Origin: a virus
Taxonomy: Duplodnaviria; Caudoviricetes
IMG/VR virus record: IMGVR_UViG_3300033066_000364
Location: 7,975 to 71,974 of that record
Direction: 5' to 3' (one strand)
Length of the DNA stretch: 64,000 nucleotides
This document shows, piece by piece, positions 861-51,751 of this stretch. The notes below the pieces were generated by a model. It was not told the origin of the DNA. It ran no database searches and worked only from the letters and a program-made list of their open reading frames with translations. Made by a program: the position numbers and the translations under genes. How positions within the stretch are numbered: position 1 is the stretch's first letter; each line of letters starts with the position of its first letter.

Positions 861-1072
861 CTTTCCATCCCTTTCATTTCGAGTATCGTTTCCTCATCAC
901 AATATCCTAGACGCAATAGGCGTCTGTTTGTTCCAAGAAAAAAAATAAATATTCTTGGAACATAGGCGAATGAATCGCGTATAGTATTATGTGAGGAATG
1001 AAACATCTTAAAAGGCGATACCGATTGCGTATAGGTTAATGTCAAGGGAATCACCACTAGCACCGAAAGGGT

Positions 1073-1432: not shown

Positions 1433-1516
1433 GCGTAATTTCTTGGAACGCAATCCCATATTTCGCGTATGGGATTGTGTCGAGAAGAAAACAATCTAAC
1501 TGGAAAGGTGCTAGTC

Positions 1517-2330: not shown

Positions 2331-2410
2331 TTTTCTTGGAACACAATCGCCCGTTTTGCGTATAGGTTATTGTACGGGACAAACATCTTAACTCTGAAAG
2401 GGAAACGACA

Positions 2411-2644: not shown

Positions 2645-2717
2645 TTCGGCGGAACACTACTCCCGATATCGCGTATAGGATATCGGGCATTTTGAAACAC
2701 TCTAAACTCGAAAGGGA

Positions 2718-3582: not shown

Positions 3583-3656
3583 TTCTTGGAACAAAGGCGA
3601 ACGGATTGCGTTTAGGATAGTGGGAAGAACGATAACTTAACTCGAAAGGTGATGCG

Positions 3657-4637: not shown

Positions 4638-4725
4638 GCGGAACACAAATCGCCCGATTGCGTCTAGGGTAGTATAACCGAGTGCAATATTGCACTTTAC
4701 ATTACAGAAACGAAAGGTTTTAGAC

Positions 4726-5785: not shown

Positions 5786-5862
5786 TGGAACAACGGACCG
5801 CGAATTGCGTCTAGGTTGATGTGAGGAACGAAACAACAAACTCGAAGCGAAAGGTGAATGAG

Positions 5863-6521: not shown

Positions 6522-6593
6522 ACGCCGGAACAACTCGGCACGGAAGCCGTTTAGGATAGCGTAACGAACCCCAAACAACGAAAGGTGACGACA

Positions 6594-6794: not shown

Positions 6795-6885
6795 GCGGAA
6801 AAAATAATCGGGAGAGCGAAACAAGACTCTCCCGATTGCGTCTAGGATGATGTAACGGGAACCACTTAACACGAAAGGGAAGCAA

Positions 6886-8417: not shown

Positions 8418-8535
8418 GCGGCAGGTGTAAACCCCTTTACACCTGGATTGATAGGCGGAATTCGTGGAACAGAGTAGCGCCGATTGCGTCTAGGTTAGTG
8501 TAACGAACACCACTCTAACCGAAAGGTAAACGGCA

Positions 8536-10835: not shown

Positions 10836-10885
10836 AGCAAAAAGTGCAATATTGCACAGTGTGTCTTTTAACCAAGGGAGAACTG

Positions 10886-20508: not shown

Positions 20509-20542
20509 GTTTGTGCAATATTGCACTCAAAGGAGAATGTAG

Positions 20543-20707
20543 ATGAAGTGTGAGAAGTGTGGGGAACGGATACCCAAGGGAAGGCTAGATGTGTTGCCGG
20601 ACACGAAGGTATGCGTGAGGTGTTCGGGTGGGAAGCGTCGGACGATAGATGACGTGGAGATAGACGTTCCGGATCGGGAAGAAATGGCTCGATGCGTACA
20701 GGGGTAA
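20543..20707 (+). CDS. TraR/DksA C4 zinc-finger protein (54 aa); not in ORF track
   Basis: MKCEKCGERIPKGRLDVLPDTKVCVRC matches the DksA/TraR CxxCGxxIPxxRLxxxPxxxxCxxC motif; AAGGAG RBS. Confidence 0.8.
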   Translation: MKCEKCGERIPKGRLDVLPDTKVCVRCSGGKRRTIDDVEIDVPDREEMARCVQG

Positions 20708-20710
20708 TCG

Positions 20711-23215
20711 ATGAAGACTTTGCTCGACATAATGCGTAAAGGCCGGATGAAGCGAGAGTCATTGAAGTACGATAGCAAATACGTCCCTGGCGACGACGCT
20801 ATGTGGCGTATGAAGGATGGCTCCAACGTCGGCGAGAAGAAGAACAGAGGGATTGTTGGCAATCCTGATGAGTTAGCCAAGAAAGTCCAGCACAAAGGTA
20901 AAGGCGATGTTTCGGCTGCGCGTAACAAGCCGAGCGAAGCAAAGGATAAGCCGAAAGAGGAATCAAAACTAGAGGCAAAGAAAGAGCCTAGTCAACCAAA
21001 AGAGGCTAAGAGTTCTCCTTCGGCAGATTTGGAAAAAGAAACGGCATCGAAAATAACAGAGGCAACACAAAAAGATGCTGTAGTTAGTGTTGCTGATTTG
21101 CGAGACTCTTTTCCGAAAGAGATGCAAGGGGAAGAGTTCGACAAGGCAATTATCAATCTTGCCGAGCAGGGAAAAATAATTGTTTACCAAGATGCTGATC
21201 CGTCGTCATTTTCGGACGAACATTTGAAGAAATTGGTGAAGGATGGGAACAATTATTTCACCACTATTTCTGCTGCTTCTGGCTCACAAAATGCACAAAC
21301 CGGAACTGCTGAGCCGAAAAAAGAAGCGACATCCAAGATGCCGTCGAATCCCGATGATGTGGCTAAGACGGTAGGAAAGCCCAAGGCATCGAGCATCATG
21401 GACAAGATGCGTAGCAAGCCCAAGGATGCCGCACCGAAAGAGCAGCCAAAGGAAGAACCGCGTCCAGAGGCGAAAGCCCAAGAAGCCCCTGCGGAGACAA
21501 AGAAACAGACCATTCCTCAGCAGCAAGCCAACGAGATTGTAACCGAGGCTTTGCAGAATGGCACGGCAAGTTCGTGGATACGCCATGCGATCAACTCTTC
21601 GGTTAGGGGTGGAAAAGGTGTCGATCCAGACGAGTTGGAATCCGACGCGAATCTCGCACTGATGGAAGTTGCATCGAGTCTTACGCCAGAGGAAGCGGCT
21701 GATCCGAGTATCTTTCGTCAGAAGGCGAAGGCGGCGATCACGAACGCGATCATTGATTCGTTCCGCAGAAAGAATACGGTCAAGGCTGGTGTCGGCAAGA
21801 AGAAGCAGATGGGTGAGGAGTTCGACGCTGCGGACAAAAAGACGGAGGCTCCAAACGCAGATAAAGTTGATGCGGAGAAGGTACGGGCATTCGTTCAATC
21901 GCTGGACAGCCCTGTATTGCAGCAGATTGCCGAAGGGAAGATGAACAAGGTTCCCATTCGCAAGATTGCCGAGGAGTTGGAAATTAGTCCTGGAACGGCG
22001 CAGCGATTGTGGGAAAAGATTGTTGAGAAGGCTGGTGGAAAAGAGGACAAGTTCTACAAGCAGAAGGAAGCGGAAGGGAAGGAACGTTATGGTCATCCAG
22101 TACGTGACGACGTTTGGGAAGAAATACTCAAACAGTCGAAACAGTATCCGTTTCCAGGTGAGTTCGTGCGTTGCGTTATGGCGGCAATGGAAAAGAGCCA
22201 AGGCCAGTGGGACGCTATCAACGCTGGTCGTAAAGCGTACATGAGCGGTAATCGGGAACGGTATGAGAGTAAATATGTCTCTGGCGACGACGCGAAATGG
22301 AAGATGAAAGACGGCAGTAACGTTGGAGACAAGAAGAATCAGGGCATCGTTGGAAGTCCTGATGACATGGCTTCGTCGGTGGGAAAGGGCGGGGGAAGCA
22401 ATGAACCTGCGAGCGACGACGATAATTATGCGGGGTTTGACGAGTTGTTCGCAAACATGACTGATCCTGAATCTTCAAATAGCACGGACGAGGCGAATGA
22501 TGACCTTGATGCTATGTCCGACGAAGAAATGGAAGCCGCCATGAGTGGCGAAAACAACGAAAATGAAACGGGCAAAAGTGATTACAAGTCAAAAAGCAAA
22601 GCGAAATTAAACTTTTACGGAAAAAGCGACATAGAAAAAGGCGTTCGCGAATCTGCCAATGCCCTTGGCGTTTCTACGGAGGCTTTCCCTGATCTGGTTG
22701 GCGCACCAGATGACGCGATTCTCGATGCCGCATCTATGTCCCCTGGCAATGTCAGGGTCAATGGCAAAGGCGATGGCTACGATTTCACCAGATACTTCAA
22801 GACTGACGAAAATGGGGACAAGTATATTCACAATGCTTCTTTTGAGGCAGAGAAAAAAGGACAAGGAGCCGAGATATTTTCAAATCAAGTTGAAAATGCG
22901 GTAGAGAACGGGTTTTCTTATATTAGGTGTCATGCGGCTGGCAATCAAGGAAGTGAATTTAACGGCTATTACACATGGCCTAGATATGGATACGACCAAG
23001 ATATTTCGGAGTTTGATGGTGCATTCCAGCAAAAGGTAAAATCCGCGTTCCCAGAAGCAAATAGCGTGCTAGATATTATGGAGACTAAAGAGGGAAGGGA
23101 TTGGTGGAAGGCTAATGGCAAGGACATGCGTAATGCCAAGTTTGACCTTAAACCTGGATCAAGATCGATGAATATCTTGAAATCATATATGGACGCAAAG
23201 AAGGGGGGTAAGTAA
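20711..23215 (+). CDS. multidomain head-cluster protein: duplicated leader, wHTH-like region, ECF-sigma-like domain (aa ~274-442), C-terminal GNAT-like domain
   Basis: Region-2-like DPDELESDANLALMEV...FRQKAKAAITNAIIDSFRRK; region-4-like LDSPVLQQIAEGKMNKVPIRKIAEELEISPGTAQRLWEKI; GNAT-like EKKGQGAEIF...GYYTWPRYGY. Confidence 0.75.
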   Translation: MKTLLDIMRKGRMKRESLKYDSKYVPGDDAMWRMKDGSNVGEKKNRGIVGNPDELAKKVQHKGKGDVSAARNKPSEAKDKPKEESKLEAKKEPSQPKEAKSSPSADLEKETASKITEATQKDAVVSVADLRDSFPKEMQGEEFDKAIINLAEQGKIIVYQDADPSSFSDEHLKKLVKDGNNYFTTISAASGSQNAQTGTAEPKKEATSKMPSNPDDVAKTVGKPKASSIMDKMRSKPKDAAPKEQPKEEPRPEAKAQEAPAETKKQTIPQQQANEIVTEALQNGTASSWIRHAINSSVRGGKGVDPDELESDANLALMEVASSLTPEEAADPSIFRQKAKAAITNAIIDSFRRKNTVKAGVGKKKQMGEEFDAADKKTEAPNADKVDAEKVRAFVQSLDSPVLQQIAEGKMNKVPIRKIAEELEISPGTAQRLWEKIVEKAGGKEDKFYKQKEAEGKERYGHPVRDDVWEEILKQSKQYPFPGEFVRCVMAAMEKSQGQWDAINAGRKAYMSGNRERYESKYVSGDDAKWKMKDGSNVGDKKNQGIVGSPDDMASSVGKGGGSNEPASDDDNYAGFDELFANMTDPESSNSTDEANDDLDAMSDEEMEAAMSGENNENETGKSDYKSKSKAKLNFYGKSDIEKGVRESANALGVSTEAFPDLVGAPDDAILDAASMSPGNVRVNGKGDGYDFTRYFKTDENGDKYIHNASFEAEKKGQGAEIFSNQVENAVENGFSYIRCHAAGNQGSEFNGYYTWPRYGYDQDISEFDGAFQQKVKSAFPEANSVLDIMETKEGRDWWKANGKDMRNAKFDLKPGSRSMNILKSYMDAKKGGK

Positions 23216-23604
23216 TGGTTAAGTCAGAAGAAATCCAATTGAGCGAAGACGACGAAAAGTGGCTGGAAGAAGCGGAATCCGCAAGAGAGCGAGCAGCAGC
23301 GGAGAAGAAGCGCACTCAAGCGACTGGTTACGCCAATCGGTACGAGAAAGAGGAAGAGCCAAAGCACGCTCCACGGCATCAGGCTCCCAAGCGTCTAGAC
23401 GGTGCTGTAGCGAGGCTAGAAGCACTGCTTGAGTACCGTGACGAAATCGACGAAGAAGCCCTAGAAAGCGAAGTGAGGGGCATTGCAAGCGAGTTTGACG
23501 CGAAAGAACTAAAAGAGATTGCTCGCAAGTTCGGCGTTAAGCGTGGGCTGGCGACGAAACTAGCGGCACTGGAAAAGATACTGGCCAAAGTGTGTGGAGA
23601 CTGA
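23215..23604 (+). CDS. charged hypothetical head-region protein
   Basis: Start overlaps the upstream stop (TAATG). Confidence 0.65.
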   Translation: MVKSEEIQLSEDDEKWLEEAESARERAAAEKKRTQATGYANRYEKEEEPKHAPRHQAPKRLDGAVARLEALLEYRDEIDEEALESEVRGIASEFDAKELKEIARKFGVKRGLATKLAALEKILAKVCGD

Positions 23605-38562: not shown

Positions 38563-40623
38563 TTGGCAAGCGATCTTGCGTCATTGGTTCCCCAAACGGT
38601 ATCGGTTGCCTTTCGTGCGACTGGTACTGGACAGCCATCGAACGGCTTTTACAATGTCGATACCAATCTTTTCGACATAGGTCTAGCTGCATTTAGGAAC
38701 ACGGTGGGATATCCGTGGACACGTCTTCTGCATCGCTATGAGATAGCGACTTACGGTGCATCTCCTCCTCCAACGAATCAAGCCGATCTTGACGCACTCG
38801 CGTTACAGATGGCAACGGATTGGTATCAATGGCAATTAGGGACGCTGGATAGATATTTCGCTGGTATAGCGGAGTGGAATCCGGAGGGATTGCACGATAT
38901 TACGTTTGAACAGCGTGGCGGGAAGATCACGACGCATGTCCAAAGGATGGTGTTCAATCCAGCGGAAGATTTGCTGTACGAAACGAATCAGATCACGAAC
39001 AACACGCCGGTAATTGGGATCGGCGATGGTTCGATTCTTTACATCGACAATGGGTTTATATCGGGCGATTACACGCATTTAGCTTGGGACGAGACGACGT
39101 TTCTCTTTTCGGTGGTTGGTGGTGCGTACTTCGACATCAAGAACAGCAAGACTTTCATTATCGAAGAAACGACGACAAACAACCAATACTTCAAGATCAC
39201 TAATAGCACGAACCAGATCAACATCTGGGAAAACACGGTCATCATCAACGAGGGGTTGGTCAAGATTGACATCAGTATTGTCAATCAACAATTCTTCGTG
39301 TGGGACCAGACGAACTATTACATCAAAATCGACGACTCGACACAGTTGGTAACGTTCTGGAATGCGTTCATCACGATATCCTCGACCGTGTTCAAGATCA
39401 CGAATAGCGGCACGGATTATTTCTACGTAGATAACTCGGATCAGAGCATCAAGATCGGTTGGCCAACAAAGGCGACGAGTGATACGGGCAAGTATGCGTA
39501 CTGGCATTACGTAGCGGGGAAACCAACTGGCGCGGCGACTGCCAAGACGGGATATTGGGCGTGGTTATTCGACTCGACGAACTATCGCAGTTGGTTCTAT
39601 GCCGAGGCCGTGTCGAAGTGGTTACTCGAATGTTGCTGGATTATCGTAAAAAAATCATCGAATTACACGGCAGAATACGGCGATTTCATTTGGGGTGACA
39701 CGAGTGGCGGCGGGGTAGACATTGACCTTCCATCTCCACTCTTGAATCAAGAAATCAAGATTCGGACGGACACGCTAACGAATCCATTGCGTGTGACGGG
39801 GACTGGCATTGGTACGAATGTGCCATTGACACTCCAGAACATGACGTATGACTTCTACAGCGACGGAACCAATTGGCTCACCGATGCTGTAGAGCCAGCG
39901 ATTCCCTATGGCACGACGACTGGGGACATGCTCGTCTGGAATGATTCCGCCCAAGAGTGGCAAATCCTTGATGCACCGACGACGGATGGGTACGTATTAA
40001 CGAGCGATTCTGGCGAGACGTTGAAGATGAAGTGGGCTCCATCATGCTGCTATGAGCCTTATACGGAAACGTTTGACGTGGACGGCACGTTTACCAGCAC
40101 ATTTGATGGGTACATAGAAATTGAAGCGTATGGGGCTGGTGGTGCTGGTATCTCAACGAATACGAACGGCGGTGGTGGTGGTGGAGCATACGCAAAGAAG
40201 AATAGTTACGCCGTGACCAATGGCGGAACTTACACGGTTGTCGTTGCAACGAACAGCACAGAGGATTCTTACTTTGTTAGCACGGCGGTCATAAAGGCTG
40301 TATCAGGAGCGACAACAGCAACTTCCTCTGGCGGCGCTGGTGGTGCGGCTGCTAGTTGCGTCGGCGACGTTACTTATAGCGGTGGCGATGGTGCTGCATA
40401 CTCGGCTCCCGATGGCGGTGGTGGTGGCGGATGTGCTACTAGTTCTGCTAATGGAGGCAACGCATCTGGGGCAACCGGAGGCACAGGCTCGTTTGCTGGT
40501 GGGACTGGTGGTGGCGATGGGTTTGGTGGTGGTGGTGGCGGTGGAAGTCAAGCCGGTGGCGCTGGGGCAGGTGGTAGCGGTCTAGGTGGAGTCGGGCGAG
40601 TCATTGTGACACGAATAAGTTAG
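38563..40623 (+). CDS. tail fibre/spike with C-terminal glycine-rich domain
   Basis: Internal N/I/T beta repeats; IEAYGAGGAG...GGGGGGAYAKK glycine-rich tail. Confidence 0.75.
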   Translation: MASDLASLVPQTVSVAFRATGTGQPSNGFYNVDTNLFDIGLAAFRNTVGYPWTRLLHRYEIATYGASPPPTNQADLDALALQMATDWYQWQLGTLDRYFAGIAEWNPEGLHDITFEQRGGKITTHVQRMVFNPAEDLLYETNQITNNTPVIGIGDGSILYIDNGFISGDYTHLAWDETTFLFSVVGGAYFDIKNSKTFIIEETTTNNQYFKITNSTNQINIWENTVIINEGLVKIDISIVNQQFFVWDQTNYYIKIDDSTQLVTFWNAFITISSTVFKITNSGTDYFYVDNSDQSIKIGWPTKATSDTGKYAYWHYVAGKPTGAATAKTGYWAWLFDSTNYRSWFYAEAVSKWLLECCWIIVKKSSNYTAEYGDFIWGDTSGGGVDIDLPSPLLNQEIKIRTDTLTNPLRVTGTGIGTNVPLTLQNMTYDFYSDGTNWLTDAVEPAIPYGTTTGDMLVWNDSAQEWQILDAPTTDGYVLTSDSGETLKMKWAPSCCYEPYTETFDVDGTFTSTFDGYIEIEAYGAGGAGISTNTNGGGGGGAYAKKNSYAVTNGGTYTVVVATNSTEDSYFVSTAVIKAVSGATTATSSGGAGGAAASCVGDVTYSGGDGAAYSAPDGGGGGGCATSSANGGNASGATGGTGSFAGGTGGGDGFGGGGGGGSQAGGAGAGGSGLGGVGRVIVTRIS

Positions 40624-40779
40624 CCTCTCCTCAAAATGAAAGCGCACGCACAATTGCTTGCCAGCGTTATGAGCATCGCCAGATAACACGTAAAAAAGTG
40701 GAATACCTTGGTCGGGAATGGTATCCCGTAGCGAAAGAACTGAATTTCGTCTGCAAGGAGAAAGACGAACGCGACGTTA

Positions 40780-41028
40780 ATGGCAATCGTGACTGCCAAA
40801 AACACAAGAGCAACGAAACGCATGGCAACCCCTCAAAAGATGTTGAACTGCATACACTTGGGAAACCGGACGAAAGAGATGGTCAAGTGCATGCAATGTA
40901 AAGGAACCCATCTCAAGGTATTCGAGTGTGCAAAGCACGGCAAATGCACGGTATACAAAACGGGGCAGACGATCCGCCATAAATGCAGCAATTGCCCCGA
41001 TTACTGTGGCAAAGACGCACAGCGTTAG
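40780..41028 (+). CDS. small Cys-rich protein
   Basis: CIHLG...CMQC...ECAKHGKC...CSNCPDY. Confidence 0.55.
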   Translation: MAIVTAKNTRATKRMATPQKMLNCIHLGNRTKEMVKCMQCKGTHLKVFECAKHGKCTVYKTGQTIRHKCSNCPDYCGKDAQR

Positions 41029-41089
41029 TTATACTACACCCCTAGACGAGAAAACTTGGCTCGTGTTCCAGAAATAAGAGGAAAATACC

Positions 41090-51421: not shown

Positions 51422-51456
51422 AGCGCCAGTGAGCATTCAACTCACTGGCGTTTTTG
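51422..51456 (+). terminator. intrinsic terminator ending the late region
   Basis: AGCGCCAGTGAG / CTCACTGGCGT stem plus T-tract. Confidence 0.85.
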
Positions 51457-51508
51457 TTTGACTTGGGTGCGTTCTTGGTATATCCTAGCATCAGAAAGGA
51501 AGGAATAA

Positions 51509-51751
51509 ATGGAAAAGAAACGTAGATCGGCTGGCTCCAGTCGCATGAAAGAACTCGGATACCGTGGGGTGATGTTGTACATCACGGAAGAGGAATATCT
51601 TTCTGCGTGCGAACTCTCTGGTGACAAACCAGTTGCGACATGGGCTGCGGAAAAGTTGAAGAAAATAATCAAAAAGCACTTGACTGTTCCAAGAACAAAA
51701 GGTATAGTTGATTGTGTCAAGCCAATCAATCAAAACGAAAGGGAAACATGA
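51509..51751 (+). CDS. RHH-like DNA-binding protein
   Basis: RGVMLYITEEEY...ACELSGDKPVATWAAEKL. Confidence 0.5.
   Translation: MEKKRRSAGSSRMKELGYRGVMLYITEEEYLSACELSGDKPVATWAAEKLKKIIKKHLTVPRTKGIVDCVKPINQNERET

Follow-up and report, generated by a model that had tools for sequence, protein, structure and literature searches.

A divergent ECF-type sigma module in a phage head-cluster protein and a matching promoter array: a candidate virion-delivered sigma factor

Why would a phage keep a protein that resembles an extracytoplasmic function (ECF) sigma factor among its head genes, and is this the factor that reads the promoter-like repeats standing before its early-type genes? The question is raised by a 64,000-nucleotide (nt) stretch of DNA from an uncultured phage (the window; bases 7975-71974 of the 71,974-bp IMG/VR virus record IMGVR_UViG_3300033066_000364, rated complete by CheckV). 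The window encodes an 834-amino-acid (aa) protein, P0001, downstream of a Mu-type portal gene (PF06074, E 3e-33) and upstream of a scaffold gene and a weak match to a major head protein. On balance we consider it probable, from the evidence set out below, that a sigma encoded by the phage itself, rather than an ECF sigma of the host, reads the repeats. How such a sigma would reach the host polymerase is a separate matter, to which we return after describing the module, its promoters and its relatives.

The sigma module of P0001

Residues ~277-449 of P0001 form a sigma-2 plus sigma-4 module of ECF size that is very divergent. An earlier note on this DNA had read sigma regions 2 and 4 within the 834-aa protein, and Pfam, TIGR02937 and fold matches agree with that reading. 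The gene and the segments concerned are as follows.

20711..23215, plus strand: P0001, 834-aa multi-domain ('polyvalent') head-module protein (open reading frame (ORF) list and translation; four homologues in the same post-portal slot)
21539..21781, plus strand: sigma domain 2, aa ~277-357 (fold matches, weak Sigma70_r2, beta' co-fold)
21782..21847, plus strand: sigma-2/sigma-4 linker, aa 358-379, with the motif GK.KQM.E (disordered in the AlphaFold2 (AF2) model; conserved motif)
21848..22057, plus strand: sigma domain 4 with helix-turn-helix (HTH), aa ~380-449 (fold matches; PF07638, GerE and Sigma70_r4_2 matches)
22073..22255, plus strand: three-helix domain, aa ~455-515 (family alignments; AF2 predicted local distance difference test (pLDDT) score 75-83)

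PF07638 (Sigma70_ECF) matches aa 337-440 with 21.6 bits against a cut-off of 21.1 (25.4 bits, E 1.5e-5, for the isolated domain), and it exceeds this cut-off separately in P0001 and in the homologues P0002 and P0026 (21.6-28.7 bits). Colinear with this match in P0001 are weak matches to Sigma70_r2 at aa ~300-355 (E 0.002-0.04) and to Sigma70_r4_2 at aa ~415-432. In a six-frame translation of the 71,974-bp genome, none of the three Pfam sigma models matches anywhere but in this segment. The NCBIfam model TIGR02937 aligns to P0001 over profile positions 22-160 of 165 (E 2.3e-9), its 37.1 bits lying below the 42.9-bit cut-off; for P0001, P0002 and P0026 the E-values are 2.3e-9, 8e-6 and 1.2e-9, at 25.6-38 bits, none reaching 42.9. 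A profile search of PDB sequences returned just region-4 and LuxR-type HTH matches, at E 0.01 or weaker.

The AF2 model of aa 270-520 (pLDDT 69.5, with three sequences as input) comprises two helical bundles connected by a low-confidence joint of ~25 residues, regions 1.1 and 3 being absent. Foldseek searches with this model gave a list made up almost wholly of sigma factors with weak E-values (SigE N-domain, TMt 0.78), and the whole two-domain model had no match at E <= 1e-3. In VIA alignments, aa 277-357 superpose on sigma domain 2 (1sig, Z 8.4, r.m.s.d. 2.4 for 71 residues; 3ugo, Z 7.9; the SigE N-domain, 8b3z, Z 7.9) and aa 380-449 on sigma domain 4 (SigF, 8jzt, Z 8.2; SigR region 4, 5fgm, Z 7.8; sigma-E region 4 on -35 DNA, 2h27, Z 7.6), and two-domain alignments were obtained to BldN, SigL, SigH and AlgU. 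By the tool's own note a Z of ~8 is middling for helical proteins, and LuxR/FixJ-type HTH domains score about as well as sigma-4 on aa ~380-449. The fold evidence nevertheless carries weight because both sigma domains are found in the right order and in agreement with the hidden Markov model results.

A family of five proteins shares both domains in the same order, together with the linker motif GK.KQM.E, which is present in all five, and the three-helix domain that follows the sigma module is among the best conserved stretches of the five-member alignment. The sigma is embedded in every member (577-834 aa) rather than forming a free-standing protein of 170-250 aa.

The phage host is likely to be a planctomycete, a reading of sequence likeness that we make because one phage gene (13519-14148, plus strand), which encodes a 209-aa protein consisting of a ClpC-type N-domain alone and is translationally coupled to terL, is 60-65% identical to the ClpC N-termini of Planctomycetia, Gemmatales and Pirellulaceae metagenome-assembled genomes. 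When aa 270-364 were co-folded with a Gemmatales beta' subunit (its N-terminal 390 aa), the score was 0.80, and the best of three controls scored 0.00; the 0.80 mark is reached by 58 of 80 solved complexes and by 2 of 110 mismatched pairs. At least 80% of contacts recur between runs, the partner pLDDT is at least 77, and the modelled interface is canonical, the clamp-helix coiled coil (RRIINRNNRLKKLVDL...RNEKRM) packing against a region-2.2-like helix at aa 307-322. The pass possibly stems from model memory, because sigma/beta' complexes have already been solved, and we take the modelled complex as a measure of likeness to a sigma rather than of binding.

A promoter array whose words drift with the family

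The motif GGAAC-N16-CGTHTA has 10 exact matches in the window, where 0.01 are expected, and none of 100 shuffles reaches 10. One-base variants at 1445 and 6818 bring the window count to 12, the number of ECF-type promoters that the earlier note had given. Genome position 577, which precedes the window, has a further copy, for a genome total of 13. The motif, which can be extended to GGAACA-N15-GCGTnTAGG, is the top gapped dyad of the genome, and the full consensus is ttcTTGGAACA-N15-tGCGTnTAGGatagtGt, with a spacer between the boxes that is fixed at 15 nt and variable in sequence. Eleven copies point rightward; the copies at 908 (minus) and 957 (plus) form a divergent pair, and that at 41043 (minus) lies in the tail module. 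All copies in the window were located by motif search.

908..934, minus strand: promoter copy, leftward half of the divergent pair
957..983, plus strand: promoter copy
1445..1471, plus strand: promoter variant (GGAACG...GCGTATG)
2338..2364, plus strand: promoter copy
2651..2677, plus strand: promoter copy
3588..3614, plus strand: promoter copy
4640..4666, plus strand: promoter copy
5787..5813, plus strand: promoter copy
6527..6553, plus strand: promoter copy
6818..6844, plus strand: promoter variant (GAAACA...GCGTCTA)
8466..8492, plus strand: promoter copy before a PAPS-reductase-like gene; homologue in a close relative at L013:473
41043..41069, minus strand: isolated promoter copy inside the tail module

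Start codons follow the sites by 30-70 nt, and almost all sites lie on the coding strand. The array heads small-gene and replication-accessory cassettes that precede the packaging genes. ECF promoters such as those of Bacillus subtilis SigW have an AAC-containing -35 element, 16 nt and a CGT-containing -10 element, and the geometry and spacing of the phage motif are the same as in SigW-type ECF promoters. Across 301 planctomycete genomes the extended motif occurs at chance, with 7 matches against 11 for reversed-pattern controls and at most one per genome. The earlier note had also assigned sigma-70 promoters of the form TTGAC-N17 to terL, portal and capsid. Such sites are indeed present before terL (13454), portal (17591) and capsid (24441), but sigma-70-like sites are not enriched, 15 being found where shuffles predict 20.

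Two promoter copies have neighbours of some interest. Directly behind the first copy, at genome 595-2628 (L014:595-2625), a 677-aa protein is encoded and is followed by the gene for single-stranded DNA-binding protein (SSB). The 677-aa protein corresponds end to end to PHROG 1735 (897 bits), for which PHROG lists the function as unknown, and has no Pfam or PDB match. Downstream of the 41043 copy, on the minus strand at 40620-40980, lie two 67-aa ORFs, one resembling a two-helix membrane protein, both antisense to a Cys-rich 82-aa ORF of the plus strand; this copy may drive an accessory gene or an antisense RNA.

A single-sequence search for relatives of the sigma module yielded one further lineage and a profile search two more, and the family comprises five proteins from at least four phage lineages. 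No short, free-standing relative was found in an exhaustive search, and IMG/VR held no relative of the module beyond the window's own record. The four homologues of P0001 are these.

P0002: 577 aa, 58% identical to P0001, on a 72.3-kb JGI contig; PF07638 above cut-off
P0026: 719 aa, ~32-37% identical to P0001, in an NCBI metagenome assembly and others; PF07638 above cut-off
P0029: 774 aa, ~33% identical to P0001, on a 71.7-kb JGI contig; named sigma-24 family protein by JGI, Sigma70_r4 weak
P0030: 797 aa, on a 4.5-kb NCBI contig; Sigma70_r4_2 above cut-off

P0030 matches the family profile twice, at aa 343-527 (sigma-like) and aa 568-721 (region 4 plus helical domain), which suggests an internal duplication of its sigma-4 part. 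In the members with genomic context, the slot just after the Mu-type portal is conserved down to ~32% identity.

The loci of the relatives as first retrieved had neither early region nor promoter pattern, and the arrays were found by walking the contigs upstream. The domain and bipartite promoters of this geometry, as an array or as a single copy, then proved to co-occur in all four lineages that could be examined. The P0002 phage, a close relative, has GGAACA-N15-TCGTCTA at the site homologous to the 8466 copy. Six copies of GGAAT-N16-CGACATT are found in the P0029 phage (0.00 expected) and nine of GAAAT-N15-GCAACA in the P0026 phage (0.08 expected), words that have no occurrence in the window in the latter case. 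When aligned, the three arrays are in register.

P0001 phage: -35 TGGAAC, N15, -10 GCGTcTAGG
P0029 phage: -35 TGGAAT, N15, -10 TCGACATTg
P0026 phage: -35 TGAAAT, N15, -10 GCAACATTG

In each of the three phages with arrays, the array opens at its left edge with a divergent pair. Promoter geometry is thus constant while the words drift gradually, in parallel with the divergence of the sigma module, and this parallel drift is the pattern that a phage sigma co-evolving with its own promoters would be predicted to leave.

In the relatives, long non-coding gaps separate the promoter array from the next gene block (L009:9320-10001 and L039:6408-6725). They hold repeated short words, for example GTCATGAC and CCGTAC, and may be origin- or pac-like regions.

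Proposed delivery in the particle and competing explanations

In the mechanism that we propose, aa ~277-449 would act as a working, highly divergent group-IV (ECF-type) phage sigma. Its sigma-2 domain would dock on the beta' clamp helices of host RNA polymerase, sigma-2 and sigma-4 together would read the bipartite promoters (TGGAACA, 15 nt, GCGTnTAGG), and the 13 promoters would fire the small-gene and replication-accessory cassettes. The sigma would be one module of a polyvalent protein, joined through a duplicated 40-aa leader and a long acidic linker to a GNAT-like effector. This protein would be loaded into the procapsid or head and ejected with the DNA or, alternatively, made anew from a host-read promoter. 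We put forward only tentatively the full proposal, that a virion-delivered sigma converts host core polymerase to a phage holoenzyme before phage proteins are made, with or without a co-delivered GNAT effector. Gene position and architecture point to delivery of the sigma protein by the virion, which we hold to be conceivable rather than probable; were the sigma a working one, delivery in the particle would seem to us about evenly balanced.

The architecture outside the sigma module includes the following features.

20756..20884, plus strand: leader copy R1, aa 16-58, KYVPGDDAMW..KDGSNVG..GNPDELAK (in-frame direct repeat)
21044..21280, plus strand: possible winged-helix insert, aa ~112-190 (weak Pfam hints)
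22253..22381, plus strand: leader copy R2, aa 515-557, beginning an inserted cassette (in-frame repeat of R1)
22640..23212, plus strand: GNAT-like C-terminal domain, aa 644-834 (AF2 model, Foldseek, homologues)
23215..23604, plus strand: 129-aa ORF, split-off conserved C-terminal tail of the ancestral gene (identity to the P0002 and P0026 tails)

Leader copies R1 and R2 share an in-frame repeat of 105 nt (20767-20871 and 22261-22365) that is 74% identical. Within the genome the leader motif is found in P0001 alone; it also forms the N terminus of P0002 and P0029, and shorter forms, WAPGPNA.W..KSPD[DA][ML]AK, occur in P0026 and P0029. The winged-helix hints are weak (TFA2_Winged_2, E 0.02; MCM4_WHD, E 0.03), and the insert is absent from P0002, the alignment of P0001 with P0002 skipping aa 93-198. 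The GNAT-like domain (~190 aa) is modelled with a pLDDT of 95 from 15 sequences. All its top Foldseek matches are GNAT or acetyl-CoA proteins, though weak (E 4e-3 and higher, TM 0.25-0.4), and its sequence contains KKGQGAE, which resembles Q/R-x-x-G-x-G/A; there was no Pfam or NCBIfam match for this domain. Homologues with 33-45% identity form the C termini of Mu-, lambda- and other-type portals, occur in MuF proteins, and are also found beside ADP-ribosyltransferase and 2H-phosphoesterase domains.

The 129-aa ORF matches the final ~90 aa of P0002 with 83% identity and those of P0026 with 77%; in both proteins this tail follows the three-helix domain. Because the tail is joined in those proteins and is a separate ORF here, a cassette of leader, acidic linker and 190-aa domain has entered and split the ancestral gene. 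The stop codon of P0001 overlaps the start of the tail ORF (TAATG). A -1 frameshift joining the two was considered and rejected, the junction being an ordinary TAATG overlap that we treat as translational coupling. The tail (...IAREFDA.DLK.IARKFGVKRGLATK...) is better conserved (77-83%) than the sigma module (32-58%), and ESM Atlas gives it a weak Rho_N/HeH-like lead (0.80). It could be a DNA- or capsid-binding anchor.

Several observations favour packaging. The post-portal slot is conserved in the family, the sigma always lies inside a large protein with leaders and long disordered linkers, and it is fused here to an effector domain associated with portals and MuF. Early-type genes stand behind the promoters, and there are no lysogeny genes. 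MuF in Mu-like head modules holds the slot that is occupied here by the sigma-bearing gene. Encoded among head genes and combining a sigma module with a GNAT-like domain, a conserved helical domain and possibly a winged helix, P0001 has the traits of polyvalent proteins, that is, at least two unrelated domains and a place among head genes. Multi-domain proteins of this polyvalent, MuF- and portal-associated class have been interpreted as packaged and injected (Iyer et al. 2017, PMC5512222). P0001 resembles them in combining unrelated domains in one chain among virion genes and in its GNAT-type domain; unlike them, it has no MuF or portal domain of its own, its repeated leader is undescribed in that survey, and no sigma domain appears there (0 occurrences of 'sigma'; PMC5512222).

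Packaged proteins that act on transcription are known. The virion RNA polymerases of N4 and of phiKZ and AR9 are packaged and ejected with the DNA, and early transcription needs no new protein (PMC4496689, PMC5449584), while T4 Alt, as summarised in PMC5512222, is a packaged polymerase-modifying protein. Whereas N4, phiKZ and AR9 deliver complete polymerases and T4 Alt is a modifying enzyme, here only the promoter-recognition subunit is predicted to be delivered. Phage sigmas are known as well: phiEco32 gp36 and SU10 CDS32 are ECF-like and redirect the host core polymerase to phage promoters (PMC4281155). Like these and Salmonella phage 7-11, the phage studied here would have an ECF-size sigma and phage-specific promoters. 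Unlike P0001, sigmas of the phiEco32 class are ~25-kDa products of separate middle genes that have a sigma-70 promoter of their own, and they read a single-box tAATGTATA on middle and late genes, whereas the promoters here are bipartite, ECF-like and placed on early-type genes. P0001 shares with cellular ECF sigmas (SigW, RpoE, Mycobacterium tuberculosis SigL and SigH) the succession of sigma-2, short linker and sigma-4 and the AAC/CGT promoters. It differs from them in scoring below the trusted cut-off of the general model, in being part of a far larger protein, in having no anti-sigma partner that we could see, and in its GK.KQM.E linker motif and three-helix C-terminal extension. No report of a virion-borne sigma factor was found in the literature searched.

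The sigma might work on the array without being carried in the particle. The main holoenzyme of the host would then transcribe the portal-to-sigma operon early and at a low level, the array, once activated by the new sigma, would form a delayed-early or middle class of the kind seen in phiEco32 or SPO1, and the position of the sigma among head genes would be a historical accident. We regard this course as possible but doubtful. Known phage sigmas are made de novo, as described for phiEco32 gp36 and SU10 CDS32 (PMC4281155) and for SPO1 (PMC13401047). Sigma-70-like sites with an extended TG do lie in the intergenic gaps before terL (13454) and portal (17591), and read-through would be easy because the genome is co-directional. 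These sites are, however, no more frequent than in shuffles, and five members retain the place between portal and scaffold at identities as low as ~32%, each time with the sigma inside a protein of 577-834 aa that carries leaders and long disordered linkers; the exhaustive search gave no short relative. Tying an early-gene regulator to portal expression would also be awkward. A different account would leave the promoters to the host: one of its ECF sigmas would read GGAACA...CGT, and the phage domain would be a decoy whose occupation of the beta' clamp helices shuts off host transcription, or a DNA-binding internal head protein like SPP1 gp7. Planctomycetes encode many ECF sigmas, the motif is of generic ECF shape, and PF07638, which we take to be a planctomycete ECF family, counts in the same direction given the probable host, as do the weak sigma scores, the degenerate region 2.2 and the resemblance of sigma-4 to LuxR/FixJ HTH domains. 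ECF sigmas are, however, normally held inactive by anti-sigmas, and a phage would be ill served by relying on them for most of its early genes. This explanation is weakened further by the chance-level occurrence of the extended motif in the 301 planctomycete genomes, by the conservation in the family of both sigma domains, their order and the linker motif, and by the separate promoter words of each lineage, and we judge it unlikely. It is very improbable, in our view, that the repeats are some other cassette-boundary signal, such as repressor or recombination sites, with the sigma likeness a functionless remnant. The conserved block does run past a normal -10 element (TAGGatagtGt), but bipartite sites with a strictly fixed 15-nt spacer, placed 30-70 nt before start codons on the coding strand and including divergent pairs, have the signature of sigma-dependent promoters.

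A number of points also weigh against a phage sigma delivered by the virion. The sigma-model scores are low (TIGR02937 below its cut-off, Foldseek E 1e-3 or weaker, VIA Z ~8), and the 'DLxQE' signature of region 2.2 is degenerate in P0001. Co-occurrence of module and array is partly inherited, the four lineages being related phages, and drifting words would also be expected if the phages each used a different ECF sigma of their hosts; with related phages and possibly different hosts, host ECF sigmas remain compatible with the drift. The sigma-bearing gene lies in an apparent late operon with no phage promoter copy nearby, and de novo supply would for that reason need a putative host-type promoter. 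The genome has no MuF domain (PF04233), and its portal is encoded separately; the family's conserved tail, a possible capsid anchor, is a separate ORF in this phage; and every characterised phage sigma is made after infection. The earlier note had described P0001 as a polyprotein; neither a recognised protease nor cleavage sites were identified.

Phage sigmas and injected multi-domain phage proteins are each known, but no sigma factor is known to be carried by a virion. If delivery in the particle is true, P0001 would be the first virion-delivered sigma factor, corresponding in minimal form to the virion polymerases of N4 and phiKZ, and the system could test takeover of host transcription by delivery of the promoter-recognition subunit alone. 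The family offers built-in specificity swaps, with its own promoter words in each examinable lineage, and orthogonal sigma/promoter sets would be potential genetic tools for planctomycetes, which are difficult to manipulate. Even if unpackaged, a regulator that is joined to effector domains and has long kept its place between the genes for portal and capsid is uncommon.

Neighbouring genes and genome setting

Immediately upstream of P0001 lies a second gene of possible relevance to transcription.

20543..20707, plus strand: TraR/DksA-type zinc-finger gene, 54 aa, C4 (PF01258, E 5.4e-9, 36.3 bits, above cut-off)

Its stop codon lies 3 nt before the 834-aa protein gene, and the same pairing precedes the P0029 gene. 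TraR/DksA proteins work through the secondary channel of the polymerase, and the two genes may because of this form a unit of polymerase-directed genes. On the other side, P0001 had been placed between portal and prohead protease. The portal half of that description stands; the 202-aa neighbour resembles KTSC-domain phage proteins (ESM Atlas KTSC, 0.80), and we have dropped its protease label.

Nearly all genes are carried by the plus strand, making the genome co-directional. The order of modules is recombination and replication, small-gene stretch, PAPS-reductase-like gene, ClpC-N-domain gene, terL, Mu-type portal, the 834-aa protein gene, scaffold, the weak major-head match and the tail genes. 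The replication and recombination module at 52-61 kb of the window encodes RecT, a ParB-like protein, an SF1 helicase, a primase-like protein and a sliding clamp, and the SSB gene is located upstream of the window. No tyrosine integrase was found in the genome, and 185,579 species genomes held neither a relative of the sigma module nor a prophage copy, which together fit a lytic lifestyle. Comparison with 50,697 deposited phage records gave no match for either DNA or protein.

Two further elements may bear on regulation elsewhere in the genome. At 51422-51708 (plus strand), a strong terminator hairpin (12-bp stem and T run) precedes TTGACT-17-TATCCT and TTGACT-17-TATAGT, and a host-read unit spanning RecT, the ParB-like protein, helicase, primase-like protein and clamp may begin there. 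A perfect 14-bp palindrome, GTGCAATATTGCAC, lies at 20513-20526, just 5' of the TraR gene, with a second copy at 10844-10857, and may be an operator or a parS-like site.

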